Notes: generated by a model not told the origin, from the letters alone. DNA of 64,000 bases from an uncultured virus (IMG/VR IMGVR_UViG_3300000928_001655) (IMGVR_UViG_3300000928_001655); one strand, 5' to 3'. Positions 6,412 through 40,456 are shown, counted from the stretch's first letter. A program made the numbers and translations.

Positions 6412-7011
6412 TTAGATGTCAAAGTGATTCTTGACAATAGTCTTGAACCGTTTCATATCTAACATCAAGAAAGGAAAATACTTCCTTGAATGATGTATTA
6501 TATCAGATGCCACGAATTTGTCAAGCAAATTCTGCTCCCAATACGAAAAAATATTTGCAATGTGTACTAGTATTGCAAATGTTTCCAGTGTTATCTTCTT
6601 CTGTAAGTACAGAGTCAATACGACTGGGTGTTGACCATCGGTTACGAAGTTGGATTTCCAGTCATCTTCGAGATGCTTTAAGTCCGACTTGAAAGTGTAA
6701 CCTAACGAATCAATTCTTTTCTTCCATTCGACGTACAAGATGTCGTCCTCTGCGATATCTCGAATCCATGCATTTGGGTTCTTGACTAAGTTTGCCAGAA
6801 GGACGTTCTCGTAATCGTCTTGTTTATATAGTTTTGCAAAGTAAAATGCATCAGGGCGACTTTTAAATGTGTCGAATGAGGCTCTTACTTTACCGTTATA
6901 TTTATGAAAATCATAACTTGGAGATGTGAAATGTTTCTTCATTGCAAGGTACTTTATGTACGCCGCATATGACTGATCATTCACATAACTCGGTAATGTC
7001 CTGTTGTTCAT
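6412..7011 (-). CDS. 59: helicase loader (T4 gp59)
   Basis: YLAMKKHF..YDFHKYNGK, HP...LYLQKKITLET; lies between gp33 and gp32. Confidence 0.88.
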   Translation of the reverse strand: MNNRTLPSYVNDQSYAAYIKYLAMKKHFTSPSYDFHKYNGKVRASFDTFKSRPDAFYFAKLYKQDDYENVLLANLVKNPNAWIRDIAEDDILYVEWKKRIDSLGYTFKSDLKHLEDDWKSNFVTDGQHPVVLTLYLQKKITLETFAILVHIANIFSYWEQNLLDKFVASDIIHHSRKYFPFLMLDMKRFKTIVKNHFDI

Positions 7012-7228
7012 CGTTGCGTTTTACCATTCTCAAAACTACAGCTTCTGATCTGATCTTCTCTTTTAGAATAGAGGATTTTTTGATCACATCTGCAACTGAT
7101 TCAATTTCTAGGTTATGCATCTGGGCATAATCTACTAGTGCATCTATGTAAGGAACCCCATTTGCGACAGCGTCTGCAATTGCGAGGTGTATTTTTTCTG
7201 GTGTCAGCGACACCACTGTTTCATTCAT
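6977..7228 (-). CDS. 33: late transcription coactivator (T4 gp33)
   Basis: YIDALVDYA...EIESVA...LKEKIRSEA; upstream of gp59. Confidence 0.85.
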   Translation of the reverse strand: MNETVVSLTPEKIHLAIADAVANGVPYIDALVDYAQMHNLEIESVADVIKKSSILKEKIRSEAVVLRMVKRNDEQQDITELCE

Positions 7229-7908
7229 TAATCTGAGATCTCCTGAAATAATATGTTATTGATATAATAATCTTTGTCCTCATCGGAGATACCCATGGCA
7301 CGAATACTATTATGTAACTGATCGTTCTTCTTTTGGTTGATACAGTAGTTGTTAAGGAGAGGTCTTGTTGGCATCCCCATCTCTACTGATTCGTCGTTCA
7401 TCTTATCTAGATAATAACATATTAATTCGGTGGTGGCAAGCAAAAACTGATCTGTTTCTTCTGCCCTTACGTTACCAACAGCCATCATGTGGTCACTGAA
7501 GATTGCTTCTGCCCACTCTGGGAGTTGACGAGGTTTCTTCCAAGTAAATTTATCTGCCTCTTTGTTAAAGTGTTGACACATTACGTGATCTTCTGTACAC
7601 ACTGGTGAGAAGTCAAAGAACGCACCACTGATCTTGTTAGGACCTGCAATGATGTCGCACCCAAGTATAGGCATATCAAAACCATTCTTTGGGAAGATGT
7701 TCAGATGTAGTAACCAGAGTTTACGTGAGTCGAGAATGTCAATCGTCTTGAGGTGACACTTCTCTACAACTTCACCAGTCCAGAACCTATCTGACCACCC
7801 AGTGAACTCTTGTACGTGTAATGGATTGTGATACGGATCAAGGTACTTGGTGAACAAGTCTGCAATCGTGTCAGAAAACTGTATGAGTTTTTCAGTGTTC
7901 TCAGTCAT
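7228..7908 (-). CDS. pcyX: ferredoxin-dependent bilin reductase, PcyX/PcyA type
   Basis: LWLLHLNIFP...PILGCDII...GAFFDFSP, RQLPEWAEAIFS, YCINQKKN; follows heme oxygenase. Confidence 0.85.
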   Translation of the reverse strand: MTENTEKLIQFSDTIADLFTKYLDPYHNPLHVQEFTGWSDRFWTGEVVEKCHLKTIDILDSRKLWLLHLNIFPKNGFDMPILGCDIIAGPNKISGAFFDFSPVCTEDHVMCQHFNKEADKFTWKKPRQLPEWAEAIFSDHMMAVGNVRAEETDQFLLATTELICYYLDKMNDESVEMGMPTRPLLNNYCINQKKNDQLHNSIRAMGISDEDKDYYINNILFQEISD

Positions 7909-8437
7909 TTTTACTCAATTCTTCGAATGAACGAAATGCGAAATCAAAACAAATTCTTCCTTCATCTGCCATAGAATCATCAAGTAGTGTACGCATACCT
8001 TGAATGAGATCGTAACGATCATCAAAGTCGTAGTACTTACCACTGCCTGGAACTTTCTTCTTAATCATCTGACCACCATGTAGATCACCAAAGTGTCTTA
8101 CATATACGTGCGCAAGAAGCTTGTGATTGTCATGTTTAATAGTATCGATGTAGTTCACGTATTCGACAGTTGTATCCAGTGCATTTTCAATTGCACTCAG
8201 GTTTTCTAGTTCCATCAATTCATGCATGTCTTCAAAGATTGCGTTCGCACGAAAGATGGAGTGAAACTTTGGATCAAGATCTACCACACCTTCTAGCGCA
8301 CCGTAACAAATCATCTGATTGAACAGATACAGTTGATAATCTTTCGGTTCAATATTTCCCGACATAAGTGCTGTTGCAAATGCAGATGTTTCTGCACGTT
8401 CATGATGTTCCCAAGTGAGTTTTTTCAAATTACTCAT
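7901..8437 (-). CDS. hemO: heme oxygenase (HemO-like)
   Basis: LKKLTWEHHERAE, AHVYVRHFGDLHGGQMI. Confidence 0.9.
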   Translation of the reverse strand: MSNLKKLTWEHHERAETSAFATALMSGNIEPKDYQLYLFNQMICYGALEGVVDLDPKFHSIFRANAIFEDMHELMELENLSAIENALDTTVEYVNYIDTIKHDNHKLLAHVYVRHFGDLHGGQMIKKKVPGSGKYYDFDDRYDLIQGMRTLLDDSMADEGRICFDFAFRSFEELSKND

Positions 8438-9144
8438 TTACTATCCTCTCCAAAAGTGTACCTTGTTGTGCCGTCTTTTTTCTTTTCTACTTGCAGTTCG
8501 ATCTGACCAAACAAAAAATATCTAACTCCACGTTCTTCAGGTATCTCTTTCTCTATTATAATTTGGTTTCTCGCAGGCAAATGCGATTTAAATTCTTCTA
8601 ATGAATGTACACAGTTAATGTGACCTTCGATGTCTGTCATATTGTTTGACTGAACTGCGAAATATATATCTCTGCGTTTCTTCGTCCAATGACTTTGAAA
8701 CTTTATCAACTCGTGCATCTTCATCTCTATATGTTCGGAAGACGTATTGATTATCAGTAGGTCTACCTCTTCACCAAAGACTGGATGCTTTTCCTTTGTC
8801 AAGTCTGCCGATCTAAACTGCACGTTATCGTATTCATTTATTATAGATGCAATGTGATTCGCTTCTTTATCGATATCAAAACAAAACATCTCCTTTACAA
8901 GTGGTGCAAGTACTGGAACTAATATCGATCCGTACCAAGAACCAATGACTATTACTTTCATTTCTTTGTGTATTATACCACTTGTTAAGACACTTGTCAA
9001 GAGTTCTTTTTTCGAAATGAATTGATTTTTACTAATCGAATCGAAAATGTCCACAGTTTTCTCTGGAAACCTTCTACTCACCTCAAAAATATTTTGTGCA
9101 TATCCTATATCGAATTTATTATCAAACAGATCTATTTTTTGCAT
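8434..9144 (-). CDS. class I SAM-dependent methyltransferase-like protein
   Basis: VIVIGSWYG, CFDIDKEA, IINTSSEH. Confidence 0.6.
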   Translation of the reverse strand: MQKIDLFDNKFDIGYAQNIFEVSRRFPEKTVDIFDSISKNQFISKKELLTSVLTSGIIHKEMKVIVIGSWYGSILVPVLAPLVKEMFCFDIDKEANHIASIINEYDNVQFRSADLTKEKHPVFGEEVDLLIINTSSEHIEMKMHELIKFQSHWTKKRRDIYFAVQSNNMTDIEGHINCVHSLEEFKSHLPARNQIIIEKEIPEERGVRYFLFGQIELQVEKKKDGTTRYTFGEDSK

Positions 9145-10715
9145 ACCCAATCCTCAATCACCAAATAATGTAGTCCAGTTCTCTTGAATGTATCTACAGC
9201 ATTCTGTGGTGTCTCGACAATAGGTTCCTGACAATTGAAACTCGTATTCAACAACATAGGAACGCCAGTCTCTTCCTTAAACGCACTAATCAGCTTCCAG
9301 TACTTCTCGTTAAAAGACTTGTCTACCGTTTGTATACGTGCAGTACCGTCGACGTGAACGATGCCTGGCACTACAGATTTCTTCTCTTCTTTGACAGGCA
9401 TGATGCGTGACATGTAAGGAGAGGGTTGATTCGTATCAAAGTATTCCTGATAGTCTTCGATCAATACAGATGGAGCGAATGGACGGAAGTCCTCTCGCTT
9501 CTTGATATCTCTATTGATGATGTTCTTAATCTCAGGGTTACGAGGATCTGCGAGGATGGATCGATTACCCAGTGCACGATTACCACTCTCTGATCTACCT
9601 TGATACCAACCTACAATCGCTCCGTTTGCAATTTCCTTCGCAATAAATGGATATATGTCATCCATATTCATTCGTTCATAATTCATATCACCAAAAATCT
9701 CTTCTTTTATTTCATGTTCAACGCCAGCATATACGGGCGGAATATGTGTATTGTTATTTAGGACATAGTCTGCCATCATATACATGCCCAAAGACTGTCC
9801 TTCATCACCAAGTGCAGGTGGAATGTACACGTTCTTGTATATCTTTGAGATCATTTCATTCATGTAACCGTTGTACGCCACACCACCACTCAGTGCCACA
9901 CTGTCAGATGTTTTATGTTCTTTTATCAAGTCCATTATACGGTCATAAGTTAACTGTTGCATCGTTGCAGCGAGATCTCTGCCAGGGATCTGTTTCTTGT
10001 TACAGAAAGAGAGAATTTCAGACTCGTGCATGGGAAGAAATTTATTAGAACCCCCATCCCTAGAAATTTCATCTAATACTGGATATAGTTGTTGATCCAC
10101 CTTACCGAATGCCGCTAAACCCATTACTTTACCAACTTCGTGATCTAACCAGATACGTCTATCCATTAATTTACCAACTATCGAAGTGGTTGCAATCCAT
10201 GTTCTACCAAGATTGAAAGTATTGCTTAGGTTCGTAACGTTCTGATCTTTGTCGGCAATGAAACTTGTAAACCTGTTACCCCCACCATCAATCGCAAATA
10301 CATCACATTCGTCAAATCCACTTTGGATGTATGAATACGCCGCATGAGCCTGATGATGATCCGCATAGAATAGGTTATCTTTATAATAGTGTTCGAAAAG
10401 AGTCTTTGGATTGTAGTCTAATAACGCCTCTTTGTGAGGAATGAGATCTGACCAGAATCTAAAAAAAGCATTATTTCTAGGTATAGACATCGCCATGACA
10501 TCATATTCATTCCACTGTGGAGTGATTACATTTTCATAGTGGAGCATCATCCCATAATCATTTGGATGACAGGATTTGAGATCTCTTGGTGTTGGATCTG
10601 CTCTTGTTCCAATTCTGTTACCTTTGACACGTGAATATCTTTCGGCAACCCAATGAGTTTTACCATCATACCATGTTTGATCATGTGATGTTAATGCAGA
10701 TCCAATTAATTTCAT
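9132..10715 (-). CDS. carbamoyltransferase, NodU/CmcH/TobZ family, full length
   Basis: HHQAHA, IDGGG, GKVMGLA, LSGGVAYN, GRSESGNRALGNRSILADP, REDFRPFAP, HVDGTARIQ, LLNTSFN. Confidence 0.93.
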   Translation of the reverse strand: MKLIGSALTSHDQTWYDGKTHWVAERYSRVKGNRIGTRADPTPRDLKSCHPNDYGMMLHYENVITPQWNEYDVMAMSIPRNNAFFRFWSDLIPHKEALLDYNPKTLFEHYYKDNLFYADHHQAHAAYSYIQSGFDECDVFAIDGGGNRFTSFIADKDQNVTNLSNTFNLGRTWIATTSIVGKLMDRRIWLDHEVGKVMGLAAFGKVDQQLYPVLDEISRDGGSNKFLPMHESEILSFCNKKQIPGRDLAATMQQLTYDRIMDLIKEHKTSDSVALSGGVAYNGYMNEMISKIYKNVYIPPALGDEGQSLGMYMMADYVLNNNTHIPPVYAGVEHEIKEEIFGDMNYERMNMDDIYPFIAKEIANGAIVGWYQGRSESGNRALGNRSILADPRNPEIKNIINRDIKKREDFRPFAPSVLIEDYQEYFDTNQPSPYMSRIMPVKEEKKSVVPGIVHVDGTARIQTVDKSFNEKYWKLISAFKEETGVPMLLNTSFNCQEPIVETPQNAVDTFKRTGLHYLVIEDWVCKK

Positions 10716-11773
10716 TTGAATATATCTTCTGTTACCTCATGAACTTTTCCTGCAAATGGTTCTGGAATATCTTTCCTACCATTCAGAACATAGTTACAAT
10801 GCATGTAAAGACCCATAGACTGACCTTCGTCACCAGGCGCATTTGGTACAAAAACATTTTCCCAATGTTTGGTATATTTTTCGTTGAGATATCCATTGTA
10901 AGATACACCCCCTGCAACACACAGATTGTTTGATGTCTTATGTGGTAGGATTGTGTCTAGTACAATTTCATTTGTAAACTTCTGAAGAGTGAATGCCATG
11001 TCTTCTTTCCACATCGCATCATTAGTGTAAGGATCGAAGAACTTTTCTTCTGGCCAATACTTACCGTCTTTCACTTTGAACTCTTCGAACATCAGATAGA
11101 AAATATCTTCCCATCTTGGTGAATACTTACCGAACCCTGCAAGTCCCATTAACTTACCTTCGTTAAGAACACCAAATCCACCAAGTCGTGTCATGACATT
11201 CCACAACCAACCAACTGGAAGATCGTTACTTAGATTGATTATCTCTTGTGTATCTGATGGAATAAAAATAGCTCTGAATGTATTACCTTGTCCATCAATG
11301 ATAAAGATATCTGATTCTTCATAACCAGAGGATAGGAACGTGTGTGCGGCATGACACTGATGATGATCTGCGTAATAGACATTGTCTTTCGTCAGATGAT
11401 CCCAAAGATGTTCTGGTACATACTCGTCTGTTTCTTTGGCGAAGTCATTACCAAGTTTATGGAAGTACGCATCTCTACCATAGAGTTTCACTCCATTGAC
11501 TGTTATATTAGTCGCAAAGATTTCGTCACTGTCAACGTGACTATCCCAAAGGTTATTATACATGTTTTGAAAAGGAATTTGTTCATTGATAACTTTGTTA
11601 TCTAGATCCTTATACCATCTGCGTTGTTGTTCGACACTCGCACCGTATTTTAGTTTCCAGTAACAATGTTTACGACGAGAAGAATCATCATACCTTTCAT
11701 ATTGTATGTGATATTCTCCATCGTATGTGTTGTGATCATGTAAGTTTAGAGGTTGGGCAAAGATCTTTTTCAT
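10712..11773 (-). CDS. carbamoyltransferase, N-terminal (Kae1-like) domain only
   Basis: HHQCHA, IDGQG, EGKLMGLAGFG, AGGVSYNG, PGDEGQSMG; lacks the C-terminal GNRSIL/RPFAP domain. Confidence 0.85.
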   Translation of the reverse strand: MKKIFAQPLNLHDHNTYDGEYHIQYERYDDSSRRKHCYWKLKYGASVEQQRRWYKDLDNKVINEQIPFQNMYNNLWDSHVDSDEIFATNITVNGVKLYGRDAYFHKLGNDFAKETDEYVPEHLWDHLTKDNVYYADHHQCHAAHTFLSSGYEESDIFIIDGQGNTFRAIFIPSDTQEIINLSNDLPVGWLWNVMTRLGGFGVLNEGKLMGLAGFGKYSPRWEDIFYLMFEEFKVKDGKYWPEEKFFDPYTNDAMWKEDMAFTLQKFTNEIVLDTILPHKTSNNLCVAGGVSYNGYLNEKYTKHWENVFVPNAPGDEGQSMGLYMHCNYVLNGRKDIPEPFAGKVHEVTEDIFK

Positions 11774-12582
11774 TATCCAACCATCTTATCAAGTATCTTT
11801 TCCATCATTAAAGCTTCGACTCCACTGTCTCGTCTGGACAATTTCTCTGTACAGTTCTGACAATACTTCTCGAACTCGAATAATTCAAAGTTCATCATCT
11901 TATCAATATTTTCTTGTGTCACGTCAAAGTGCCGTGAACCATTGATCACCTTCTTACTACAGTGCCTAATCTTTTTCAATTCGAAATCAATTACTGGAAC
12001 ACGAGGGAACAAAGAACACATTCGTCTTGTCATCTCTGGTTCCTGATCGAACTTATCATAGGTGGGTGATCGTGAGTTGTATTCTTTGAACTGTGTGTTC
12101 TTGTGGTATAGATGCATAAGACCATGCTTCTTTCTATACTCTTCAAAGTTCGGTGTCATAATAATCAGATTATAATTGTTGTTATCATTCACTGTTAAGA
12201 AGTCATAGTTACCTAACTTTTCAATACGGTCTTCATAGAAGTCCAACACTAAGTGTTCCACATAATGGACTGCAGGATCATCTAAGATGTGAGGATAGAA
12301 TTTCCGAATCAAACTGTTAGACAGAACAACTGGCGTGAGATTAGGATATTTCTTAATCTCATCGATGACTTCATCTAAGTTGTTAGTAAGTGCAGGTTCA
12401 CCACCAAGTAGGTTGATCCTCGCTTTGTATGGACTTAACCATTTGAGTAACGGTGATATGAAATCCATGTCCACATCTAAGTTACGCATCTCAGTTGTCC
12501 ACGCAGTACAATAGTGGCAAGATTTGTTACAAGACTTTGTAAGATAAAAGTCTATACCAAATCCAAAGGCTTCTGATGACAT
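11773..12582 (-). CDS. radical SAM protein
   Basis: CNKSCHYC, LLGGEP; further C-terminal Cys (CQNC). Confidence 0.9.
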   Translation of the reverse strand: MSSEAFGFGIDFYLTKSCNKSCHYCTAWTTEMRNLDVDMDFISPLLKWLSPYKARINLLGGEPALTNNLDEVIDEIKKYPNLTPVVLSNSLIRKFYPHILDDPAVHYVEHLVLDFYEDRIEKLGNYDFLTVNDNNNYNLIIMTPNFEEYRKKHGLMHLYHKNTQFKEYNSRSPTYDKFDQEPEMTRRMCSLFPRVPVIDFELKKIRHCSKKVINGSRHFDVTQENIDKMMNFELFEFEKYCQNCTEKLSRRDSGVEALMMEKILDKMVG

Positions 12583-13679
12583 TATAAAATTCCTGTGATT
12601 GACTCTATGACTGTATTTATTTCATCGTCCGTAAGGAAAGGATTGATAGGAAGTGACATAACTGTCCTTGATGCGTTCACTGAGTTGGGTGTATCACAGT
12701 TATATCCATTCAATACTGGATTTTCTGTAAGTGAACAATCATAGTGGACTTTAGGACTCCACTTCTTTGACATCTTGATAGACTGTATTACGAAGTCTCT
12801 CGTCTCTTGATCATCGAACCGTACCACGTATTTGTGGTAATTGTGTTGCAACGTACTACGAGGTTTCTGTGCTTGCGTGATGAGTTTTCTCTTAAACGCT
12901 GCATCATACTTCTTTGCAATCTCTTGTCGTTTGGATTGCCAGACTGTTAAGTGTTGTAATCTCCAATTGATGACCTCTGCATTTGGTACATATAGTTTAG
13001 AGTTCATAGACCCAGGCACTACGAACAACTCTCCCTGTTTACCGTGTCGACGCATTGACATAACTCTTTGTGCCATGTCTTTATCGTTAGTCATAAACAT
13101 ACCACCGCCTGCAAGACCTGCGATAACCTTGTTTGAATTGAAACTTAAAACACTGCAGTCACCAATAGTTCCTGCTTTACGACCATCAAGACTTGACCCA
13201 AGACCTTGTGCGGCATCCTCTACGAAAAGAATACCTTTGTCTTTACACCAATCTTCAATCTCTCTAGTGTCATTCATAGATCCATACAAGTGAGTATAAA
13301 TGAGTGCCTTGGTATTGTCAGTGTAGTTGTCTTTGATAGACTGGAAGTCTAGGTGATAGGTGTCGATATCGATGTCTGCGAATACAGGTGTTGCACCTAC
13401 ACGTGTGATGCACGTTGCAGAGGATATCCATGAGAAGTTTGTCACAATAACTTCGTCACCTGCACCAATACCATTCGATGCTAGTGCGAAGTATAGTCCA
13501 TCTGTTGCGTTTGCGACACCAACGGCATAATAACGACCTGTAAATCGTTCAATGTTCTTCTCTAGGAATTCAACACTACCATCATATTCTTTTCTCATCG
13601 CTTTGTCAAGTAGGGTATGGTAGTGAGACTGGTTATAGTCCCACTCACGATCCCATGCATCATAAGGTATCAATTTCAA
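12582..13679 (-). CDS. DegT/DnrJ/EryC1/StrS PLP-dependent sugar aminotransferase
   Basis: ANATDGL, GAGDEVI, EDAAQGLG, SFNSNKVIAG..GG, SLPINP; TTG start with AGGAG RBS. Confidence 0.93.
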   Translation of the reverse strand: MKLIPYDAWDREWDYNQSHYHTLLDKAMRKEYDGSVEFLEKNIERFTGRYYAVGVANATDGLYFALASNGIGAGDEVIVTNFSWISSATCITRVGATPVFADIDIDTYHLDFQSIKDNYTDNTKALIYTHLYGSMNDTREIEDWCKDKGILFVEDAAQGLGSSLDGRKAGTIGDCSVLSFNSNKVIAGLAGGGMFMTNDKDMAQRVMSMRRHGKQGELFVVPGSMNSKLYVPNAEVINWRLQHLTVWQSKRQEIAKKYDAAFKRKLITQAQKPRSTLQHNYHKYVVRFDDQETRDFVIQSIKMSKKWSPKVHYDCSLTENPVLNGYNCDTPNSVNASRTVMSLPINPFLTDDEINTVIESITGIL

Positions 13680-13701
13680 ACTCCTGTACGTATTTTAGTG
13701 T

Positions 13702-13730
13702 ATTATACCATTAAAGATTCGATTTGTCAA
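13702..13730 (-). promoter_or_regulatory. sigma70-type promoter driving the degT-to-gp32 run
   Basis: TTGACA-17 nt-TATAAT with TG extension. Confidence 0.75.
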
Positions 13731-16047
13731 GTTCATATGACCCATCATCGTGTTCTTTTTCTGTCATTTTTGCAGTTTTTCCCCAAGACTCTATAAGAGC
13801 TTTTCTTTCTTCTGTCATGGGTCTGGGTTCATAGAACTCTTCAAGTTCTGGGAAGACATCAAACAAATGCATCTCCCATCTTGTTCCCTCATAGTATTTA
13901 TCTTGAAGTAACAAGTACTCAAAAATGTCTTGAAGATCTACGTGTTTTTCTGCAGGACGACTTAATGCCGCTTGAATATCTGGCCATTCTGCATATTTTG
14001 GTATCAGATCTTTTTTGATCTTCTCTGGTAGATTGTTAGTTCTCAACGCAGGAGGGTTCTCTAACATCGCCCAGTTCAACTGATCAATAACAGGATTTTG
14101 TTTACACCAATCAACCACTTCATAGAACCTCATTGCACTCAAGAAAGATACTAGTCCGTTAAAGTCCACAACTGCGTTGTCAAATGCACCACAGAGTTCA
14201 ACGTTCTTCTCAACCTTTGCCCAGTCAGTTCTTCTACGCATGTATTCGATTACTGGACCGACACCGTCAACTGATGCAACAACTGCAACATGATTGAAGT
14301 AAGGAATATAGGTAAGAAGATTGTGTTTACCTGCCTTGGTTTCTGTCAAGTTAGTTTGGTACTTCAGAGAAATTTTCTTTGAGTGTCCACGATCAATCAG
14401 TGCGTCCAACATTTCATATTGTTTTTTCATAATCAAAGGTTCACCACCAATGATTTTGATACTCTTAATATAAGGTGCAAGTTCAACAATCTGATCGACA
14501 GATCCCTGTGTCTTATCTCTTAAAACACTTTGTACAAGTCTTCCATTTGGATTAGAGTTCTCACCGTGTGTGTAAGATGACCACACTCCTTTAGTAACCA
14601 CACCAGCTTTCAAACTTTTCATTCGTGTAGTAGAATTAATGAAGTCACACATGTAACAATCAATATTACATTCTGATCCATAGATCTTTAACTGGACTTC
14701 GAATATTCTTTCACTTGGTGTATTGAACTCTTCTTTATAGTAGTGAGAGTTCTTAATCTTAAACTGACCAGTTTTTCTAAACTTGTCTACCTTCGACTCA
14801 ATCTTATTCCAGAAAGGTGGATCATTCGTATGGATCTTCAAACAGTTGGTACGTCTTGAACGACCATACTTCTCTTCATCTGTATAACATCGGTTGCAGA
14901 TCTTTTTAACGTTCCTCAGATCAGATCCAGGCGTTGTCATCTCACGTCTGATAGAGTTCATGTATTCACTATCTTCCATCCACTCAACAAGACTTACATC
15001 TTCTACTGACACACCACTTGATGCACCGAAACAACATGCCTGATACATACCGTCAAGTTCTGCATAGATCTGAGTAAATGGAATAGTACAGAAAAAGATA
15101 TCTTTTGCCTTTGCGAGTTGAACAATTGAATTGTCCAACGCAGTTGTCATCTCACCTTTTTCGTCCATGTTCTGCCACCATGCGGCAGTACTGATATGGC
15201 CTGGAGTGTTCTTATCGCCAGGTCCGCCTTTAGTAAGATGGATGGGGTGATCTTTCCATACAACTGGTAGATCTCCAACTGGCCAGTCAAACGCCCATGC
15301 TTTTTCCTCACACCAGAAACACATTCTACATTCTGTTGTACCATCACAGGTTAAGTATGGAGATGTCCCAACGCAAGATCTACATATAGGAAACAAATCT
15401 GACATCAAACCATTTTCAATGAAAACACCTGCGACAAACTTCTTATCTACATTACAATAAGGTTGATAGATGTTGAATGGTGGCCATTTAGTACTCAGTC
15501 TCCACTCTTCTATTGTGTCGAGTTCTTGATCTCTGCGTCTTTCGCCCTTCTCAAAGAAATCTAGTTTGCGCATTTCTTCTGAAGGTGGGTTGCGTGTCAT
15601 ACCATCAAGACGAATCGCATTAGGATCGACTTTCTGTGCCTTTTCCATCATTGCCCAAGAAATTCTATCTACTTGAATAATCTTCGAGACTTGTCTTCGT
15701 CTCGGCATAGCTGCAAATGTTTCATTCTGTGCAGTGATCTCATCTACCTCTGCGTGAGTAATGAAGGTTTCATCCTTGTCATTGAAGTCATGGATCTCAA
15801 TAGGTGGAATATTATTGTCTGGGAATTTGTTTTGCATCCACTCAACAATCAAACGTGCCGCAACCGCATCTTTCGGTGCGTTTTGATCTCGACATGTATA
15901 TGGTACAAGTTGTACTTGTGGAAAATGTTTTGAAACCAAATACATGAGACTACAAGAGTCAAGTCCACCCGACATAGAGATAGGACATAATTTTGGAATT
16001 GTGTCTGGAAACAAGTTTATTGTTTGATCACCGTGTGTAATTTTCAT
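13711..16047 (-). CDS. fusion of QueC-like PP-loop ATPase, N-terminal twitch domain and radical SAM core
   Basis: SMSGGLDS, RSC..CRMCFWC; then CTIPF..ACC..CNRC; then CNIDCYMC and GGEPL. Confidence 0.85.
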   Translation of the reverse strand: MKITHGDQTINLFPDTIPKLCPISMSGGLDSCSLMYLVSKHFPQVQLVPYTCRDQNAPKDAVAARLIVEWMQNKFPDNNIPPIEIHDFNDKDETFITHAEVDEITAQNETFAAMPRRRQVSKIIQVDRISWAMMEKAQKVDPNAIRLDGMTRNPPSEEMRKLDFFEKGERRRDQELDTIEEWRLSTKWPPFNIYQPYCNVDKKFVAGVFIENGLMSDLFPICRSCVGTSPYLTCDGTTECRMCFWCEEKAWAFDWPVGDLPVVWKDHPIHLTKGGPGDKNTPGHISTAAWWQNMDEKGEMTTALDNSIVQLAKAKDIFFCTIPFTQIYAELDGMYQACCFGASSGVSVEDVSLVEWMEDSEYMNSIRREMTTPGSDLRNVKKICNRCYTDEEKYGRSRRTNCLKIHTNDPPFWNKIESKVDKFRKTGQFKIKNSHYYKEEFNTPSERIFEVQLKIYGSECNIDCYMCDFINSTTRMKSLKAGVVTKGVWSSYTHGENSNPNGRLVQSVLRDKTQGSVDQIVELAPYIKSIKIIGGEPLIMKKQYEMLDALIDRGHSKKISLKYQTNLTETKAGKHNLLTYIPYFNHVAVVASVDGVGPVIEYMRRRTDWAKVEKNVELCGAFDNAVVDFNGLVSFLSAMRFYEVVDWCKQNPVIDQLNWAMLENPPALRTNNLPEKIKKDLIPKYAEWPDIQAALSRPAEKHVDLQDIFEYLLLQDKYYEGTRWEMHLFDVFPELEEFYEPRPMTEERKALIESWGKTAKMTEKEHDDGSYELDKSNL

Positions 16048-16056
16048 TTGTTTGCC

Positions 16057-16626
16057 CTAACTATCTTTCATTCGTTCTAGTTCTGCGATAAAATCTATCG
16101 ACTGTACAACACCTGCTTCTTTTGATTTACGCCAGAAGTCTGCAAATGCAACTATGTTTCTTTCTTTTTGATCTCTACCTGCGGCTTGGTACTCAATACA
16201 CATTGGTAAATAGACTTTCACATCGTGACCTTCTTTTGCCCATGGAATTGCAGAATACGGTGTTTGATCTAATACACACCCTTTTGTATTTGTACCACCA
16301 AAGATAACTCTTCGAGGAATTACACCTTTATCAAACAACATAGTTTCGATGCTATGTATTGTGGGATATCTCACAGGATCTATTTGAACCCACCTGTGGA
16401 AGTCGTCAGCCTCTACCTGTTTGCGCAATTCGTTCATTTTAAACTCAGATTCTCTTTTATGATCTGACAAGATTATGAATTTCTTATGTCTACCAAAGAG
16501 CAAACCTCTCAGAGTACTCCAACGAAGTTCTTCAGACGCTTCATCTGTTGACAGGGGATGTCCTTCGAAATGAATAAGGACAATAACATCTCTTAAATGA
16601 GCTTGTTTCTTTTTATTCTTTGCCAC
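16057..16626 (-). CDS. isochorismatase/cysteine hydrolase-like protein
   Basis: VIVLIHFE and VIFGGTNTKGCV resemble the GxxTxxCV motif. Confidence 0.5.
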   Translation of the reverse strand: MAKNKKKQAHLRDVIVLIHFEGHPLSTDEASEELRWSTLRGLLFGRHKKFIILSDHKRESEFKMNELRKQVEADDFHRWVQIDPVRYPTIHSIETMLFDKGVIPRRVIFGGTNTKGCVLDQTPYSAIPWAKEGHDVKVYLPMCIEYQAAGRDQKERNIVAFADFWRKSKEAGVVQSIDFIAELERMKDS

Positions 16627-18043
16627 GTTCTAACACTCCACTATCGTACATTTTCTCGTGTAAGTCCTTACCCATCCAGTAAGGTTTCAATTCTGGATAT
16701 AGATCCCATAGACTACCTTTAAAATCAGAGTTTCTATATCTTAGATCCATCCTCAACAAATAATCAAACGTGTCTTGATAACTCAGACCACCGTTATCTT
16801 CTCTTAGTACCTGTTGAATGTCTGGGAAGTTATCATACTTAGGTATCAACTCCTGTTTAAGATCGTAAGGTAATACGTTTGCAGCTAACAGTTTGGGGTT
16901 TCTGATTTCCGACCAGTTCATCATAGACAACCAGTCATCATTTGCTTCTGCCCATTCAATTAATTCGTAGAACCTAATAACACTCAGGAAGTTGATAACT
17001 CCATTAATATTAATTCTAACATTAGGGAACTCAAGAACTGTTTTAATATTCGCCTGGATTGTTTCCCAATTTGATTTACGTCTCATGTAATCGTTATATT
17101 TACCAACACCATCAAGAGATATTGTGAATTCAAATATATCGAAATGAGGAATGTAATCAAGAATATTCTTCTTACCGTTTGGACCATCTAATTCAAGAGA
17201 TGCCATGTTAGTTTGGTACTTAACCATTATTTCTTTAGAATGTCCAGATTCTACGATACCATCAAAGACATCGTAGAATGATTTCATTACAAGTGGTTCA
17301 CCGCCAATAAATTTTAGATTACGTATATACGGTGCAAGCCTTACAATGTTATCAGCAAACTTTGATTGCACCTGTCTCTTTGGATTATCGTTTGGCAACA
17401 GTGATCTTGCAGCGAAAACTTTTTGTCCCTGCATCGATTGCGATTGCATAGTCTGTGATCGTGTCGACGAATCAAATGGCATACACATAAAACAATCAAG
17501 ATTACATGTGTTACCAAAAGTCTTGATTTGCATTTCGAAAACTCTGGATTGCATTCTTGCCTTACCAGTGTCTCTGAAAACCTGAACTGCTTCTGCAATC
17601 ATTGGCCAAATACCAACATCATTTGTTTGGATTTTTAGAGATGCCTGTCTACGTGATCTTCCATATTCTTTTTCTTGTCTAATACAGTGCTCGCAGACAT
17701 GTTTACAAGTCTCCAAAGGATCGTTTGGAGTTGTCATCTCTTTGCGCATCTTATTGAGAGTTTTATCATGGACAAAATAGTCTTCGATACTTTTCTCTCT
17801 GATGTTTGGTGGTTCATCATCTGGTGCTTCCATTGCCCAAGAACAAGGTAGGAATCGTCCCTTCACATCCGTATAGAGTAATTGAAACGGCGCAGAACAA
17901 AACCAGATGTCACCATCTCTGATTTGATCTTCGAAGAGTTTAAACTCTTGAAACCAAGAACTCATGTCAACAGTACCATCACCAAGGTACATGTCGCCAG
18001 GACCACCCTTCCAGAGGTGTGATTGGTTACTGTTGTTACTCAT
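16613..18043 (-). CDS. twitch-domain radical SAM protein, paralog of the C-terminal part of 13711..16047
   Basis: CSAPF..LPCS..CEHC, CNLDCFMC, GGEPL, KYQTN. Confidence 0.9.
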   Translation of the reverse strand: MSNNSNQSHLWKGGPGDMYLGDGTVDMSSWFQEFKLFEDQIRDGDIWFCSAPFQLLYTDVKGRFLPCSWAMEAPDDEPPNIREKSIEDYFVHDKTLNKMRKEMTTPNDPLETCKHVCEHCIRQEKEYGRSRRQASLKIQTNDVGIWPMIAEAVQVFRDTGKARMQSRVFEMQIKTFGNTCNLDCFMCMPFDSSTRSQTMQSQSMQGQKVFAARSLLPNDNPKRQVQSKFADNIVRLAPYIRNLKFIGGEPLVMKSFYDVFDGIVESGHSKEIMVKYQTNMASLELDGPNGKKNILDYIPHFDIFEFTISLDGVGKYNDYMRRKSNWETIQANIKTVLEFPNVRININGVINFLSVIRFYELIEWAEANDDWLSMMNWSEIRNPKLLAANVLPYDLKQELIPKYDNFPDIQQVLREDNGGLSYQDTFDYLLRMDLRYRNSDFKGSLWDLYPELKPYWMGKDLHEKMYDSGVLERGKE

Positions 18044-18977
18044 CTTTTAATGATCCTTTAAGTGGGTTCTCATTAATAGGTTGTTGCCAAGATATCTTTT
18101 CAACACCCTGATCTGTTTTACCATCTGGCGCAATTCTCAATCCAAAATCAAAATCTTCGTCTGACATCACTTTCCAAGGTGCTCTGTTTTCTTGTTGTTG
18201 TAAAACGGTTTGTTCTGGCGGGGGTGGAGGGTTTTCTTCCAACCAACGTCTTCTTGGAATGTTATGCCAACTCTCTAGTTGTTTGGTTCTGTGTGCCCAG
18301 TACTCTTTCTTTACTCTTGCTTCTCTATGCTTTGCATCAGGTGCGCCTAATTTAAAGTCAACGTTATCTCTGAGTAACGGATTGTCTGTACGGAAACCTC
18401 TATTAGTATTCACCACAAGTAGTGCAAAGTCTTCCTCTTTGGCGATCTCAATTGCACGTTCTAGTTCATGTTCGTTGTAACCAAAGACGATATACTGCCA
18501 TACAATACAGTGTCCTAAATCACGACCTTGTTTCATACGCTTCCATACGTCATCAAAATTAGAACCAATACGATAGAGTTCACTCTTCTTGTCAATACCA
18601 TCTACACCAAAGTACCAAGCGTTCTCACCTACACCATAACTATATGCTTCGTCCCACCACTTATCTGGTTTACCACTACCGACTGTTGCAATACGAACTG
18701 CTTTCTTCTTACCATCACATATCTTTAGAAGGCTTAAGAAGTCTTTGTGGTAGATTGGATCTGAGATTTGACCACAGAAAGTAATGCCGTAATCATAGTA
18801 GTCCAATATCTTTTTAAATTGTTCTGGTTCCAAGTCAAAAGATCTACGAATTTGCGTTTGACTCGTAGTCTTCTGTCTAATGCACTGAGGGCATTTGAAA
18901 ATACATCTATGCGAAGTGTCAATGTTCGGACGACTTCGTCTCTGATTTTTTACGTACAGATCAGTTATTCGACTCAT
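18036..18977 (-). CDS. radical SAM protein
   Basis: CIFKCPQC, CGQISDP, FGVDG, WQYIVFGYNEHE. Confidence 0.88.
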   Translation of the reverse strand: MSRITDLYVKNQRRSRPNIDTSHRCIFKCPQCIRQKTTSQTQIRRSFDLEPEQFKKILDYYDYGITFCGQISDPIYHKDFLSLLKICDGKKKAVRIATVGSGKPDKWWDEAYSYGVGENAWYFGVDGIDKKSELYRIGSNFDDVWKRMKQGRDLGHCIVWQYIVFGYNEHELERAIEIAKEEDFALLVVNTNRGFRTDNPLLRDNVDFKLGAPDAKHREARVKKEYWAHRTKQLESWHNIPRRRWLEENPPPPPEQTVLQQQENRAPWKVMSDEDFDFGLRIAPDGKTDQGVEKISWQQPINENPLKGSLKDE

Positions 18978-20181
18978 TGAACTGCCACTCCACTTCTCTT
19001 CGTTCTTCTTTTTTTAATTTTTCAGAACTTATATTAACTCCACATTTCTTTTTACACATGTATGGTGCACTCTCAGGGCTCCATAAAAGTGTTTGGAAAA
19101 AGTTTTCCCATTCGTCAGATGTATAGATGTCCTCTAGCTTTTCATTATTTGAAACAGCGAGGTGTTCATCTTTCAACCCATGCGCAGTAATCCACCTATG
19201 AACAGGCGGATCATCTAACCAACAGCAAGGTAGCATAAACCCATCTGAAGTATATGCTGCCCCTTTACTATTGTCACCATGTTTAGGACCTTTATTAAAT
19301 AAAAATGCGAGACACCTTGGTTGTATTTTCATGAGATTTTTAAACGCTTTTATAATTGGTTGAATATCAGGTTTGGTATTACCCTCTTTTAATCTATTCC
19401 AGTACACATAACCACCGTCTCTGAGAGATTTATCTCTTTTGTAAATCATCTCCTTGCCGTAGTATTTGCATTCCTGAATAATGCGTGGTGCAGGATCAAA
19501 GTGATCTTTTGTATAAACGTATGTATTGAAAATACCCAGAAAGTTTTCTACTGGGACAAATATATTATTGAATGCAGGATTTACCCAGTGTTCATCATAT
19601 GTGATGATACCGTGATCGAAATATTTGGGGAGTTCTCTTGCCGCTACAGTATAGTATATCATATTCGTACCCAAGAAAAGGTATTCGAACTGAACATCAT
19701 CTTTGTGTTCTTTGTAGATTTTAAAGTTAATATGTTTTTCGAAGTGTTCACCAACACCTTCAGGATACACATCTGTATCACACAAGTCTTCTACTTGTTC
19801 TGGGTTAAAGAACTCTATAGCTTTGGGATATTCGGTTGGATGGTTTGATGAATATACACTGATCAGTCTTCTAGAGAAAAGTTCTCTTAAGTTTTTCTTT
19901 GATCTATTGTCATAACCATCAAAGTTTTTGTACGCTTGGGTAACCATACTTCTACCCATTACCATCGTTATGGGGTATTGGACATTATATTTAAAGTAAA
20001 GATATTTGGAATGAACGTATTTACTATTAATCGTATCGATATAATCTTGTTGATCATATAAACGATGTGGTACAACAACTACACGTGCACGAACACCACT
20101 TTCATTTAAGAGAGTACAATATTCATAACTGTACAACAATAAACCATCTACTGGTTTTGATGTAACCACAATGTTAATCAT
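18961..20181 (-). CDS. unknown (possibly glycosyltransferase-like) domain fused to a C-terminal SPASM/twitch-like domain
   Basis: C-terminal QPRC...DGFMLPCCWLD...CKKKC; no CxxxCxxC motif. Confidence 0.6.
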   Translation of the reverse strand: MINIVVTSKPVDGLLLYSYEYCTLLNESGVRARVVVVPHRLYDQQDYIDTINSKYVHSKYLYFKYNVQYPITMVMGRSMVTQAYKNFDGYDNRSKKNLRELFSRRLISVYSSNHPTEYPKAIEFFNPEQVEDLCDTDVYPEGVGEHFEKHINFKIYKEHKDDVQFEYLFLGTNMIYYTVAARELPKYFDHGIITYDEHWVNPAFNNIFVPVENFLGIFNTYVYTKDHFDPAPRIIQECKYYGKEMIYKRDKSLRDGGYVYWNRLKEGNTKPDIQPIIKAFKNLMKIQPRCLAFLFNKGPKHGDNSKGAAYTSDGFMLPCCWLDDPPVHRWITAHGLKDEHLAVSNNEKLEDIYTSDEWENFFQTLLWSPESAPYMCKKKCGVNISSEKLKKEERREVEWQFNESNN

Positions 20182-25922: not shown

Positions 25923-26219
25923 ATGCCACATGAACTCAGATTCACAACAGATCCTAGTCTTGCAACGCACGATGACATCCCAGAAGAGGATGATGTTACA
26001 CCTGCGGCACACGCAATCTTCGAAGCTTATTTGGCGGATGGAAGAATAACTAGCTCTGTGAGAGAGAACGAAGATGCAATCGCAAACACATACGATAGTA
26101 TCATCACTTTTGTAGACGAGGCAACCTGTGACGCATACCTAGCCGAAATGGAAGGTATAAACGAATTCGATAAGAGTGGTGCGTCAAGAACCAATCTTTC
26201 AAGAGGTGATGTAGATTAA
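25923..26219 (+). CDS. small acidic hypothetical protein
   Basis: 98 aa, strong RBS, coupled (TAATG) to the nitroreductase gene. Confidence 0.75.
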   Translation: MPHELRFTTDPSLATHDDIPEEDDVTPAAHAIFEAYLADGRITSSVRENEDAIANTYDSIITFVDEATCDAYLAEMEGINEFDKSGASRTNLSRGDVD

Positions 26220-26935
26220 TGAATAAAGATGAATTATTGAGTGCCATACAAGGCACAAACCCCTGTCAAAGAAACTGGGATCATTCCCAGACTATTCCTA
26301 CAGAAGATGTCAATTTGTTATTGGAGTCTGTCAAACAGGCACCAACAAAACAGAATGAAACCAATTACAAGATATATTGGACAACTGACAGAACGAAGAT
26401 CCAAGAGATCTACGAGAGAACACCGTACTTTGCAGTATACGATACTGATGGATCAACACCTATCAACGAGAGAGGTGAGACTCCACCAGAGTATAATGTA
26501 ACTAACCCACAAGTAAATGCCAATATGATCATTGCCATATGTGATGATTGGGATCAAGAACTCGCACGAGGACGCACACATATGGTTGTTGATGATGATA
26601 CAATCGAAGAACATCTCTACACGCATATTGTCAAGAACAGAATTATGGATATTGGTGTTGGTATTGCATTAGGACAAATTTGTCTTACCGCTAACTTACT
26701 AGGATATAAGACAGGAATGTGTTCAGCGTTCAACGAAGACGAAGTTCTAGGAATTCCAGATACATTCTGCAAATCAATCATTGGAATAGGATATCCTCAA
26801 GATGGTGTCAACAGAAGAATGCATCCAGATGTACTCAATAGTGACATCGTTGAAGAAAATATGAGAACTGGTGCACTTACTGATAACTGGATTTTTCCTT
26901 CATTCGTGAAAATGCCAGATGTAACGGAGATATGA
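26219..26935 (+). CDS. nitroreductase family protein
   Basis: CQRNWD, QAPTKQN, DIGVGIALGQICLTANLLGYKTGMC, IGIGY. Confidence 0.8.
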   Translation: MNKDELLSAIQGTNPCQRNWDHSQTIPTEDVNLLLESVKQAPTKQNETNYKIYWTTDRTKIQEIYERTPYFAVYDTDGSTPINERGETPPEYNVTNPQVNANMIIAICDDWDQELARGRTHMVVDDDTIEEHLYTHIVKNRIMDIGVGIALGQICLTANLLGYKTGMCSAFNEDEVLGIPDTFCKSIIGIGYPQDGVNRRMHPDVLNSDIVEENMRTGALTDNWIFPSFVKMPDVTEI

Positions 26936-26936
26936 C

Positions 26937-27368
26937 ATGGGATTTTATATCACTGGTACACGGAGAGGATTGGGTAAAGTACTTGCATGGAAGTTCGGTA
27001 ATACGGGATCGATGAGACACTGTGATGTGTTCATCAATTGCAAACATAACGACTTCGATCAAGTTGATATGCTCTATCAAGCGCACGAGGCGGGTGTAAA
27101 GAGAATTATTAACATTGGTTCTAACTCACCAGATGAGACCAAGAGAGACCCCCACATCTATGCCGTTCAAAAAGCAGCACTTGATGCAGCTAATGATCAA
27201 TTGTTTTACCAAGGTGTCAACACGACTAACATAAGGTTTGGTTGGTTTGACAGTGAAAGAGTTGCACACGTAGATGCAAAGAAATTAGACATGGACTATT
27301 GTGCAGAAGTTGTTCAATGGGTTGTGGATCAACCACATCGAATAAAGGATATTACAGTATGCATATAG
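26937..27368 (+). CDS. minimal short-chain dehydrogenase/reductase
   Basis: ITGTRRGLG, IINIGS, YAVQK (YxxxK). Confidence 0.8.
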   Translation: MGFYITGTRRGLGKVLAWKFGNTGSMRHCDVFINCKHNDFDQVDMLYQAHEAGVKRIINIGSNSPDETKRDPHIYAVQKAALDAANDQLFYQGVNTTNIRFGWFDSERVAHVDAKKLDMDYCAEVVQWVVDQPHRIKDITVCI

Positions 27369-27859
27369 ATGTACTTAGAATTGTAGAAGAGATTGCGCCT
27401 TTGATGTACCAGATGTCAGAGGAACAAGACTGTCGCCATCAGATTATGCTTCAAGGTTGTAAAAATCAGAGGCCAGAAGAAGAAGACTTCGACCCCTACT
27501 TGGGAACTCAAGGTTTCAAATGGTTAAGTGAGGAAGGATACATAGAGTATGAGTTCAGAAACCCCATTTATGATTATCTAGAATATACGAATAAGGTCAT
27601 TGCGGATCTCAAGATACACCGAACTAGACTCATCTGTTTGAGACCCCAAACATGTTACACTTACCACAAGGACTTCTCACAGAGGATACACATCCCTCTT
27701 ATTACGAACCCGAACTGTTTCTTGATCGTTGATGATGAACTTAATAGGTATCCTGCAGATGGTAGTTCATATCTCATAAATACTACGAAGCACCACACAG
27801 CAGTCAATGCGTCCAAAAGAGACAGATGGCACATTGTAGGGTGTACTTCACAAAGATAA
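27359..27859 (+). CDS. aspartyl/asparaginyl beta-hydroxylase-like 2OG-Fe(II) oxygenase
   Basis: RTRL...YHKD..RIHIPLITN...HTAVN...RWHIV. Confidence 0.8.
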   Translation: MHIDVLRIVEEIAPLMYQMSEEQDCRHQIMLQGCKNQRPEEEDFDPYLGTQGFKWLSEEGYIEYEFRNPIYDYLEYTNKVIADLKIHRTRLICLRPQTCYTYHKDFSQRIHIPLITNPNCFLIVDDELNRYPADGSSYLINTTKHHTAVNASKRDRWHIVGCTSQR

Positions 27860-27867
27860 AATAATGC

Positions 27868-27896
27868 TTGACAAGTTTGTAAGACGGTGGTATAAT
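27868..27896 (+). promoter_or_regulatory. sigma70-type promoter
   Basis: TTGACA-17 nt-TATAAT with TG extension. Confidence 0.8.
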
Positions 27897-27927
27897 CGTT
27901 TTACGCTTTTAATACAATGAGGCTGTT

Positions 27928-28440
27928 ATGAAAGAAGTTATTGAATACTTTAAAAATAGTTGGCAACAAGACTTCTCTAAATTCACATTCAGTGGATGGG
28001 AACTTCTTAACCGAATAGACGCAAATGAGTCAATACTTGACGTTGGTTGCGGATACAATCCTTTTAAAAAACATTTTAAAAACGTTTATGGTATCGATCC
28101 TGCGATTGATGCGGCAGATGAACTGACATCTATTGATGACTTTGTGTCTGATAAAAAGTGGGATGTTGTCCTAGTACTTGGAAGTCTCAACTTCGGAACG
28201 AAGGATCTAGTCAAATCTCAAGTCGAGAAAGCTGTTCATTATTGTAAACCTGGCGGGCGGATCTATTGGAGACAAAATCCAGGCGATAATGATCATCCCT
28301 ATGATGGGATCGACACTATCACGTTTTTTGGTTGGACGTTTGAGGACAACTATGAATGGGCGAAAGAGTTTGGATGTAAGATTGTCGAAGTTAGGTGGGA
28401 TACTGGAAATCGTATCTACGCAGAATGGAAAAAGTTATGA
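27928..28440 (+). CDS. class I SAM-dependent methyltransferase
   Basis: ILDVGCG, GIDP, KPGGRI. Confidence 0.85.
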   Translation: MKEVIEYFKNSWQQDFSKFTFSGWELLNRIDANESILDVGCGYNPFKKHFKNVYGIDPAIDAADELTSIDDFVSDKKWDVVLVLGSLNFGTKDLVKSQVEKAVHYCKPGGRIYWRQNPGDNDHPYDGIDTITFFGWTFEDNYEWAKEFGCKIVEVRWDTGNRIYAEWKKL

Positions 28441-29324: not shown

Positions 29325-29327
29325 TTG

Positions 29328-30816: not shown

Positions 30817-30817
30817 T

Positions 30818-32277: not shown

Positions 32278-32875
32278 ACTTCTAATAATTACTGGACCCC
32301 AAGGGTCTGGTAACCACCTCTTCAGTAAGATTTTATCTCATCATCCTAAAGTATTTGGTTGGAAGATGAAAACTTACTGGGAAGGACACCATGACGAACC
32401 GTTTAATGGTGCATGGTCTGACCCATCCGAGCTACATCAGTTCGGGTGGGATCAGCATGAATACATATTTACAAGTGTCTCTTGTCCATACATTAAGAAC
32501 AAGACACCTTATAAACCACGATATAAAACCTTTATAGAAACTGCATCTCAATATGCAGATATAAAGATAGGAATTATCGGAAGAGACCAGAACATATTAA
32601 GATATCAACAAACTCGTGTACGAGGTCAAAGTACCGTCGATCACTTTCAGAGTTCATTGCCATATCTAATGCAGTTTAATCCTTTGTTTCTTAGTCAAGA
32701 ACTATATCAACTATATGGTAACGACTATCTACAAAGTGTGAGTAAACTTCTGGATTTTCCAATCTCACATCAATCGATCTATGTTGATGCAAATAAAAAA
32801 TACATTCAAGACATTGGTGCGCAACCATTGGATTTAGAAGTAAAGAGAGTTATAGATGAGCAACGAAGTAAGTAA
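32267..32875 (+). CDS. P-loop sulfotransferase-like protein
   Basis: IITGPQGSGNHLFSKILS.HP. Confidence 0.5.
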   Translation: MKPKLLIITGPQGSGNHLFSKILSHHPKVFGWKMKTYWEGHHDEPFNGAWSDPSELHQFGWDQHEYIFTSVSCPYIKNKTPYKPRYKTFIETASQYADIKIGIIGRDQNILRYQQTRVRGQSTVDHFQSSLPYLMQFNPLFLSQELYQLYGNDYLQSVSKLLDFPISHQSIYVDANKKYIQDIGAQPLDLEVKRVIDEQRSK

Positions 32876-34104: not shown

Positions 34105-34105
34105 A

Positions 34106-34551: not shown

Positions 34552-34559
34552 TTAAGGAG

Positions 34560-34871: not shown

Positions 34872-34873
34872 TA

Positions 34874-39423: not shown

Positions 39424-39426
39424 GGG

Positions 39427-40422: not shown

Positions 40423-40456
40423 GTATGTTTTTCCTTTCATGATTATTCAACATAAC

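Follow-up and report, generated by a model that had tools for sequence, protein, structure and literature searches.

Class III carbamoyltransferases (CTs), among them TobZ, GdmN, NovN, VtdB, NodU/NolO and CmcH, are regarded as obligate two-domain enzymes, in which carbamoyl-AMP moves through a closed chamber. The same two folds, YrdC-like and Kae1-like, lie on separate proteins in the N6-threonylcarbamoyladenosine (t6A) pathway, where the adenylate is made by TsaC/Sua5 and handed over to the Kae1-fold TsaD. Here we analyse a 64,000-nucleotide stretch of DNA from the uncultured virus IMGVR_UViG_3300000928_001655 (the window), in which a stand-alone Kae1-like transfer domain (the half gene or N-only CT; P0001) lies directly upstream of a complete CT (the full CT; P0002). 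Judged from sequence comparisons, the pair is probably a naturally split class III CT, in which one adenylating domain is shared and the transfer modules can be exchanged.

The N-only CT (353 aa; 10712..11773, minus strand) matches PF02543 only (2.2e-18), while the full CT (527 aa; 9132..10715, minus strand) matches both PF02543 (3.8e-19) and PF16861 (8.4e-69). The full protein begins with a divergent ‘clade II’ Kae1-like N domain (residues 1–345; 9681..10715, minus strand), 34% identical to the N-only CT, and ends with a YrdC-like C domain (residues 356–527; 9132..9650, minus strand) that is predicted to form carbamoyl-AMP. Both proteins thus share the PF02543 match and the two-histidine/two-aspartate metal site of class III enzymes; a YrdC-like domain in the same chain is present in the full CT and absent from the half. 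The t6A system differs in its donor, threonylcarbamoyl-AMP, and its acceptor, tRNA A37. Moreover, the YrdC-like domain of the window is still fused to a Kae1-like domain, and the half resembles CTs far more than it does TsaD. The characterised class III enzymes, in the part of the GdmN literature drawn on here (PMC9633730), all carry both domains in one chain, whereas the window has a separate, conserved transfer-domain gene and some of its relatives have two such genes per YrdC-like domain.

IMG/VR was scanned with both CT proteins and their relatives, which matched 231 and 238 stretches in two separate scans; 231 loci, many of them overlapping on the same contigs, were retrieved and are referred to by L-numbers. 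The half has every family-invariant residue, and across an alignment of 36 sequences its metal ligands H137, H141, D160 and D315 do not vary; the corresponding ligands of GdmN are given as H133, H137, D156 and D333 in the excerpted account of that enzyme (PMC9633730). Its AlphaFold model (pLDDT 89.4, pTM 0.88) is a complete Kae1-like domain, with GdmN, VtdB, TobZ and NovN as best fold matches (E 3e-9 to 6e-8, TMq 0.54–0.59) and TsaD/Kae1 at ~1e-5. The open reading frame (ORF) ends cleanly a few residues into the interdomain linker, free of frame disruption, on all seven contigs that carry such a gene, and its stop overlaps the start of the full CT by 4 nt (ATGA) in the window and by 7–11 nt in L006 and L007.

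Since the half lacks the C domain that is common to all characterised relatives, it might be taken for the decaying remnant of a duplicate, which the intact catalytic residues and the clean linker end on seven contigs make extremely improbable. The ratio of non-synonymous to synonymous substitution (dN/dS) points the same way: against three orthologues (68–79% identity) it is 0.10–0.11 for the half, compared with 0.18–0.19 for the N domain and 0.044–0.05 for the C domain of the full CT, 0.10–0.14 for the neighbouring DegT gene and 0.12–0.14 for the heme oxygenase gene (hemO), all rough values because dS is saturated (1.4–2.5). Orthologue identities of 68–79% exclude assembly copies of one sequence. 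In L035, a near-identical phage, the half encodes an identical protein (dN 0, dS 0.015). By these comparisons the N-only CT is plainly under purifying selection, and the signs of a decaying duplicate that an earlier note on this DNA had named are missing: neither relaxed selection (dN/dS ~0.10) nor absence from relatives (orthologues on seven contigs) was found.

A tree of 28 N domains bears on the origin of the split. The N-only halves make up one clade (support 99/97), which lies within a group that includes three full-length CTs (100/99); the remaining relatives are all full-length. The window’s half is 59% identical to the full-length CT of this sister group and 67–78% identical to its N-only orthologues. 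A separate long-branched clade (100/100) unites the second N-only genes of L005 and L007 with the N domains that split genomes carry in their full genes. In the C domain the full CT clusters with L011, the full-length sister of the half (SH-like approximate likelihood-ratio support 93). Because the N-only clade nests with full-length CTs and the C domain groups with that same sister, the half is taken as the ancestral transfer domain of a module of DegT, radical S-adenosylmethionine (rSAM), CT and methyltransferase-like genes, and the conserved C domain now sits behind another transfer domain. The branch leading to the N-only clade is 0.17, with no burst of change after loss of the C domain. 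Recent in-place duplication after divergence from the sister group, considered as the source of the second N domain, was ruled out by an approximately unbiased test (p 0.0002). The divergent clade is placed nearest to this sublineage with support 80.

These trees, and the comparison with L035 below, recast the pairing proposed earlier, in which the half borrowed carbamoyl-AMP from the full enzyme to modify a second site. The half is intact, selected and directly upstream of the full CT; the roles are reversed, in that the module’s ancestral acceptor domain is in the half and the divergent, recombining one in the full CT.

The full CT also keeps its metal ligands (H120, H124, D143 and D304, invariant in its alignment). 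Its N domain is 45–51% identical to the half in three core segments and falls to 16% over half-residues 41–125 and 11% over 216–262; the full CT has, in addition, a nine-residue insert after residue ~205. By a rough offset from the shared ligands, the two divergent segments seem to correspond to helix 1, loop 3 and loop 4′, the elements that line the substrate pocket of GdmN in the excerpted description (PMC9633730), and they are also the segments that vary most between two full-CT alleles. Such differences in pocket-type segments fit different acceptor specificities, and the two transfer domains probably serve different positions or different acceptors.

The second transfer domain is mobile, as alignment of the window with L035 shows. 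Of the 77 windows of 100 columns, 65 are at least 97% identical, and a single block at about 10700–9870, covering the first ~280 codons of the full CT (9870..10700, minus strand, limits approximate), drops to 47–85%. For the N domain in its entirety dS reaches 0.61, compared with 0.01–0.06 in the flanking genes, and the N-only CT protein is identical; the block is an allele replaced by recombination between near-identical phages and not a product of local fast evolution. Seven residues of the N domain and two of the C domain are fixed only in CTs with an N-only partner, a count drawn from five partner sequences of one clade and hence uninformative.

The module itself is widespread in pelagimyophage-like contigs, and the split is rare. 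A synteny survey of the first 50 distinct records (49 IMG/VR contigs and Pelagibacter phage Mosig) gave a recurrent core made up of DegT, the methyltransferase-like gene, a full CT and a 269-aa rSAM gene. Apart from DegT, these core members stand side by side in many loci, with one or two ORFs intervening elsewhere, and the methyltransferase-like gene follows directly after the CT in most related loci. The block as a whole was matched in well over a hundred marine phage contigs. Among unique complete CT ORFs in the retrieved loci, 106 of 112 are N+C and 6 of 112 N-only. N-only genes were found on seven contigs, each directly upstream of an N+C gene and all in a sublineage with hemO and bilin reductase genes, whose adjacency to the module is seen in that sublineage only. 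Five of the seven have one N-only gene and a full CT; the other two (L005 and L007) have two N-only genes and one full CT, and the sister group L011–L013 has a single full-length CT at the same position. The full CT that adjoins the half holds the only YrdC-like domain seen nearby.

Similar proteins occur beyond these loci. Ten of the 13 nearest cluster representatives at 50% identity (E ≤ 1e-30) are of N-only length (303–358 aa); the nine that were read all end at the domain boundary, and eight of them keep HHxxH and GDEG, with P0368 showing NDSG and thus retaining the aspartate. As far as these sequences indicate, the split form is not a one-off. Two representatives of other N-only lineages, P0122 and P0193, gave nothing useful against viral contigs, and one metagenome scan with other N-only lineages matched only L232, a full-length relative at 42%. 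Short proteins with PF16861 only (C-only) are numerous, and a few of them are on long contigs (P0241, P0256 and P0294). In all 80 IMG/VR loci nearest to P0256 the gene is N+C, either complete or cut by the contig end, so that stand-alone C-only genes are at most putative.

We propose that a single ancestral CT became two genes in this sublineage, one encoding the Kae1-like domain alone and the other a divergent Kae1-like domain joined to the YrdC-like domain. Carbamoyl phosphate and ATP would be turned into carbamoyl-AMP by the YrdC-like domain and serve both Kae1-like domains, the N-only CT acting in trans, either docked to the full CT or through a diffusible intermediate. The t6A pathway, with its separate adenylate maker and Kae1-fold user, is the precedent for such a division. 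The newer transfer domain is exchanged among phages by recombination. Because the half is intact and always beside a full CT that holds the only YrdC-like domain seen nearby, use of carbamoyl-AMP in trans is the most economical reading. A search for a YrdC/Sua5 gene standing alone (PF01300) found none in five related records: the 141-kb whole genome record of Mosig, a 91%-complete 160-kb contig and three partial contigs, one of the five having the split arrangement.

The half could instead be an independent transferase with another donor, either an adenylate from a host or phage AMP-binding enzyme or carbamoyl phosphate itself. Kae1-fold enzymes do take diffusible adenylates made by a separate protein, and the window has two AMP-binding-family ORFs (29325–30368 and 34874–35548). 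This is nonetheless rather unlikely, for N-only genes abut a full CT on seven of seven contigs, and their clade descends from full-length CTs; the lack of a burst of change after C-domain loss argues for an unchanged donor.

A further alternative makes the half a non-catalytic partner, a scaffold or specificity subunit that forms a dimer with the full CT in the manner of TsaB/YeaZ with TsaD. Translational coupling of the two genes, a common arrangement for subunits, agrees with this, and the model of the half also resembles TsaD in entries of the TsaD–TsaB heterodimer (E ~1e-5), although CT folds are far better matches than these entries. TsaB-type partners keep the fold and have lost the metal site, whereas several N-only lineages, the half among them, retain the four ligands and the motifs GGVxxN and GDEG without variation, which renders a purely structural role unlikely. 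Trans use of carbamoyl-AMP by an active half is preferred to either alternative.

The most likely acceptor is a small molecule that resembles an aminated sugar or cyclitol, an assignment drawn from the best solved relative of DegT, the ranking of BtrN and SpeY for the rSAM enzyme and the rSAM–CT fusions. The DegT/DnrJ/EryC1/StrS-family pyridoxal-phosphate aminotransferase (365 aa; 12582..13679, minus strand; PF01041 8e-76, residues 36–361) has 55 relatives in the PDB, led by 7b0d, ‘glutamine--scyllo-inositol transaminase’ (1.2e-52), with WbpE and QdtB next (~1e-43). The small, twitch-like rSAM enzyme (269 aa; 11773..12582, minus strand) matches PF04055 with E 3.8e-6 and 27.6 bits, below the cut-off of 29.5. 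Its CX3CX2C motif (C18, C22, C25) and a second four-cysteine cluster site (C189, C208, C241, C244) are invariant in 29 homologues, and pairwise dN/dS for the gene, a rough measure, is 0.03–0.05. Its predicted model (pLDDT 81.4) has BtrN (4.4e-5) and SpeY (1e-4, ‘twitch radical SAM dehydrogenase SpeY’) as top Foldseek matches, and the VIA-align Z scores are 12.1 for BlsE, 11.8 for BtrN, 11.0 for SuiB, 10.7 for PqqE and 10.0 for viperin. ORFs of 945–962 aa in L053 (6615–9500) and L014 (1292–4126), and one in L051 (2552–5056) that ends at the contig edge, join an rSAM domain of ~460 aa to a full CT and so tie the two chemistries together.

The rSAM enzyme would then convert an alcohol to a ketone and DegT the ketone to an amine, before carbamoylation and methylation. 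This order of steps is the logic of aminocyclitol tailoring, as in BtrS/BtrN, SpeY and TobZ, and the locus likewise brings together a DegT aminotransferase, a small twitch rSAM enzyme, a CT and a putative methyltransferase; it differs in that neither a cyclitol synthase nor a sugar-nucleotide synthase could be recognised. The ‘aminosugar’ label first given to the module is plausible.

DNA as the acceptor is unlikely. A metagenomic phage CT that acts on 5-hydroxymethylcytosine (5hmC) in DNA and on 5-hydroxymethyl-dCTP is documented in the consulted portion of Yang et al. (eLife 2021, PMC8670742); like the full CT, it is a phage-borne two-domain enzyme of the same Pfam families. According to that portion, its gene co-occurs with those of a thymidylate-synthase homologue (a hydroxymethylase), a dCMP deaminase and a MazG-like protein, neighbours that were not found in the window or its relatives, where DegT, rSAM and methyltransferase-like genes stand instead. 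The same extract (PMC8670742) places the residues that discriminate the 5hmC enzyme near the carbamoyl phosphate/ADP pocket, at the positions of TobZ W408, G421 and R423.

The suggestion that the module hypermodifies phage DNA, for instance by carbamoylating 5-hydroxymethyl pyrimidines, had been left open in view of the linkage to replication genes. The module is indeed promoter-driven and beside replication genes in the window, and the phage carries a Mom-like gene. In other phages, however, it lies among auxiliary-type genes and not replication genes. A thymidylate-synthase-like deoxynucleoside monophosphate hydroxymethylase (PF00303) was sought in 80 window ORFs, the 29.6-kb fragment G001 and the five related records (which include one complete genome and the 91%-complete contig), and none was found; nor was there a tRNA-guanine transglycosylase (TGT)/DpdA-type gene in the scanned window ORFs or the five records. 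A Tet_JBP search was run without a positive control. With no hydroxymethylase in the window or the five records, 5hmC-type carbamoylation is unlikely, and we regard DNA hypermodification by this module as very improbable.

Several points weigh against a split CT with a shared adenylating domain and a small-molecule acceptor. The GdmN chamber is described as solvent-inaccessible in the available part of its account (PMC9633730), and taken with the fusion of both domains in all characterised enzymes this means that release of carbamoyl-AMP to another protein would be without precedent in the class. The finding that a half never occurs without a full CT comes from one lineage, sampled by CT similarity, and the dN/dS values suffer from the saturation already mentioned. 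The divergent N domain may stem from an older duplication or from import from another phage. As to the acceptor, the fold match of the rSAM enzyme is indiscriminate, tied with other twitch and SPASM enzymes, since SPASM peptide maturases come within ~1.5 Z of BtrN and BlsE; the methyltransferase is assigned at profile level; and the window showed no recognisable gene for sugar-nucleotide activation. Taken whole, the combination of a split CT, a shared adenylating domain, exchangeable transfer domains and a small-molecule acceptor is the best explanation, and we hold it with about even confidence.

Should it be correct, a class III transfer domain would be able to work alone, one adenylating domain would be able to serve several transfer domains, and acceptor specificity would be changeable by module swap, which is of interest for engineering natural-product carbamoylation. 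It would also help to interpret a large, unexplained rSAM/aminotransferase/CT gene block of marine phages. A bolder extension, which is possible though doubtful, is a modular system in which one YrdC-like domain feeds one to three Kae1-like domains, some free-standing, that are duplicated, and swapped through recombination among phages otherwise identical, to retarget the carbamoylation of a glycan or metabolite. Such a tailoring device would generate diversity, perhaps as part of an arms race that concerns a structure of the virion or of the cell surface.

The same family takes in the CT of Mosig and the ‘Nol-like carbamoyltransferase’ of cyanomyophages such as P-SSM2, S-SSM7 and P-RSM4, and the full CT C domain matches 136 phage records, with Mosig closest (70.6%) and the listed cyanophage C domains at 45–50%. 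Mosig has the DegT, rSAM, CT and methyltransferase genes in the same order, the last as ‘putative methyltransferase’, but with a single full-length CT and no half gene, whereas P-RSM4 has a single full-length CT among 2-oxoglutarate oxygenases, without DegT or rSAM genes. The literature searched gave no functional characterisation of these CTs, and nothing that joined pelagimyophage with carbamoyltransferase or carbamoyltransferase with cyanophage and radical SAM; the Mosig genome announcement makes no mention of the module genes.

The minus strand of the window has a head-to-tail series of nine genes: DegT, rSAM, N-only CT, full CT, methyltransferase-like gene, hemO, bilin reductase, gp33 and gp59, with gp32 further on. 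The order from DegT to the methyltransferase agrees with the earlier note, at its coordinates. The read-on that it proposed into hemO, pcyX, gp33, gp59 and gp32 is borne out by family matches throughout, the supposed pcyX being placed at family level as a bilin reductase (Fe_bilin_red). The heme oxygenase gene lies at 7901–8437 (minus strand; PF01126 2.9e-18) and that of the ferredoxin-dependent bilin reductase at 7228–7908 (minus strand; PF05996 2.1e-19).

The class-I-methyltransferase-like gene is a 238-aa ORF (8434..9150, minus strand) with a likely ATG start at 9144, and the Atlas entry of the protein begins at its residue 3. The ORF at 8434–9150 matched no Pfam and no PHROG family. A profile of 23 homologues matched class I methyltransferases in the PDB, namely MJ0882 (2.1e-5 over ~80 residues) and KsgA (4e-5); a separate comparison gave CbiT (0.0043). 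In L108 (7520–9325) and L138 (7506–9131) the gene is fused behind a Methyltransf_25 domain, giving proteins of 541–601 aa.

Upstream of DegT, a group of genes recurs with the module (13711..20181, minus strand), comprising those for a 778-aa protein, a 189-aa ORF, twitch rSAM enzymes of 476 and 313 aa and a 406-aa ORF. NF033640 matches within this group reach 2.5e-77 (in the C-terminal part of the 778-aa protein, a twitch rSAM) and 6e-80, and homologues of these genes adjoin DegT in many loci. The N-terminal ~317 residues of the 778-aa protein (13711–16047, minus strand) have no family match; separate homologues of this part in L018 and L025 show weak PP-loop matches (QueC, NAD_synthase), and the protein seems to have arisen by the joining of two genes that other loci keep apart. 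The 406-aa ORF (18961–20181, minus strand), next to DegT in many loci, gave in an Atlas structure search a glycosyltransferase B (GT-B)-like region at residues 1–287 (TM ~0.5) and a SPASM-like tail at 283–397, with a model pLDDT of 0.57; a GT-B-like glycosyltransferase is a weak lead from this model.

The perfect sigma-70-type promoter that had been noted before DegT was found at 13730–13702 on the minus strand (13702..13730), reading TTGACA-17-TGGTATAAT, that is, TTGACA-17-TATAAT with a TG extension. It lies within the 3′ end of the upstream gene, 22 nt 5′ of the DegT start, and L007 has a perfect promoter at the equivalent position. A second perfect sigma-70-type promoter (8972..9000, minus strand) lies within the methyltransferase-like gene and is present in L035 too. 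The window has six perfect TTGACA-N16–18-TATAAT sites against 0.07 expected, and none of 100 shuffles reached six (maximum 1). They are at 6497–6524 (minus), 8972–9000 (minus), 13702–13730 (minus), 27868–27896 (plus), 40463–40491 (minus) and 55985–56013 (plus), all oriented with the local coding strand and several located in the 3′ or 5′ part of a gene. Of these, the site within gp59 that precedes gp32 is kept in L005, L007, L011, L013, L030 and L035.

From the promoter type we infer an ‘early’ timing of the module. Contigs from RNA libraries of three studies (X16–X18) match parts of DegT, the rSAM gene, the N-only CT (11346–11696) and hemO at ≥99% identity; as contigs they show no transcript ends, may reflect DNA carry-over and do not prove transcription, and their gap over 9640–10935 carries no evidential weight.

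The source of the window is a marine T4-like myophage of the pelagimyophage/cyanomyophage group. It also encodes a gp41-like helicase, UvsX, UvsY, UvsW, a gp55-like sigma factor, gp46/47-like proteins and a family B polymerase. Mosig (Kyanoviridae) is its sole DNA-level match among 50,697 phage records; the host of this closest isolate is SAR11, and the stretch is present in at least 15 seawater metagenome runs. The Mom-family protein (42920–43549, minus strand; PF25680 2e-32; PHROG ‘Mom-like DNA modification protein’ 8.6e-57) suggests adenine modification of the phage DNA, unrelated to the CT module. Host-like transport genes at 38572–40440 (minus strand) and 30970–32277 (plus strand) encode a glycine-betaine-type ATP-binding cassette (ABC) substrate-binding protein (OpuAC 9.8e-37), an ABC permease (3.3e-23) and a sodium:solute symporter (1.1e-17). 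A second tailoring-type block, on the opposite strand to the module (26219–37000, plus strand), comprises a nitroreductase, an Asp/Arg hydroxylase-like protein, methyltransferases, two AMP-binding-family ORFs and an Fe-S assembly protein, with an aldo/keto reductase nearby.

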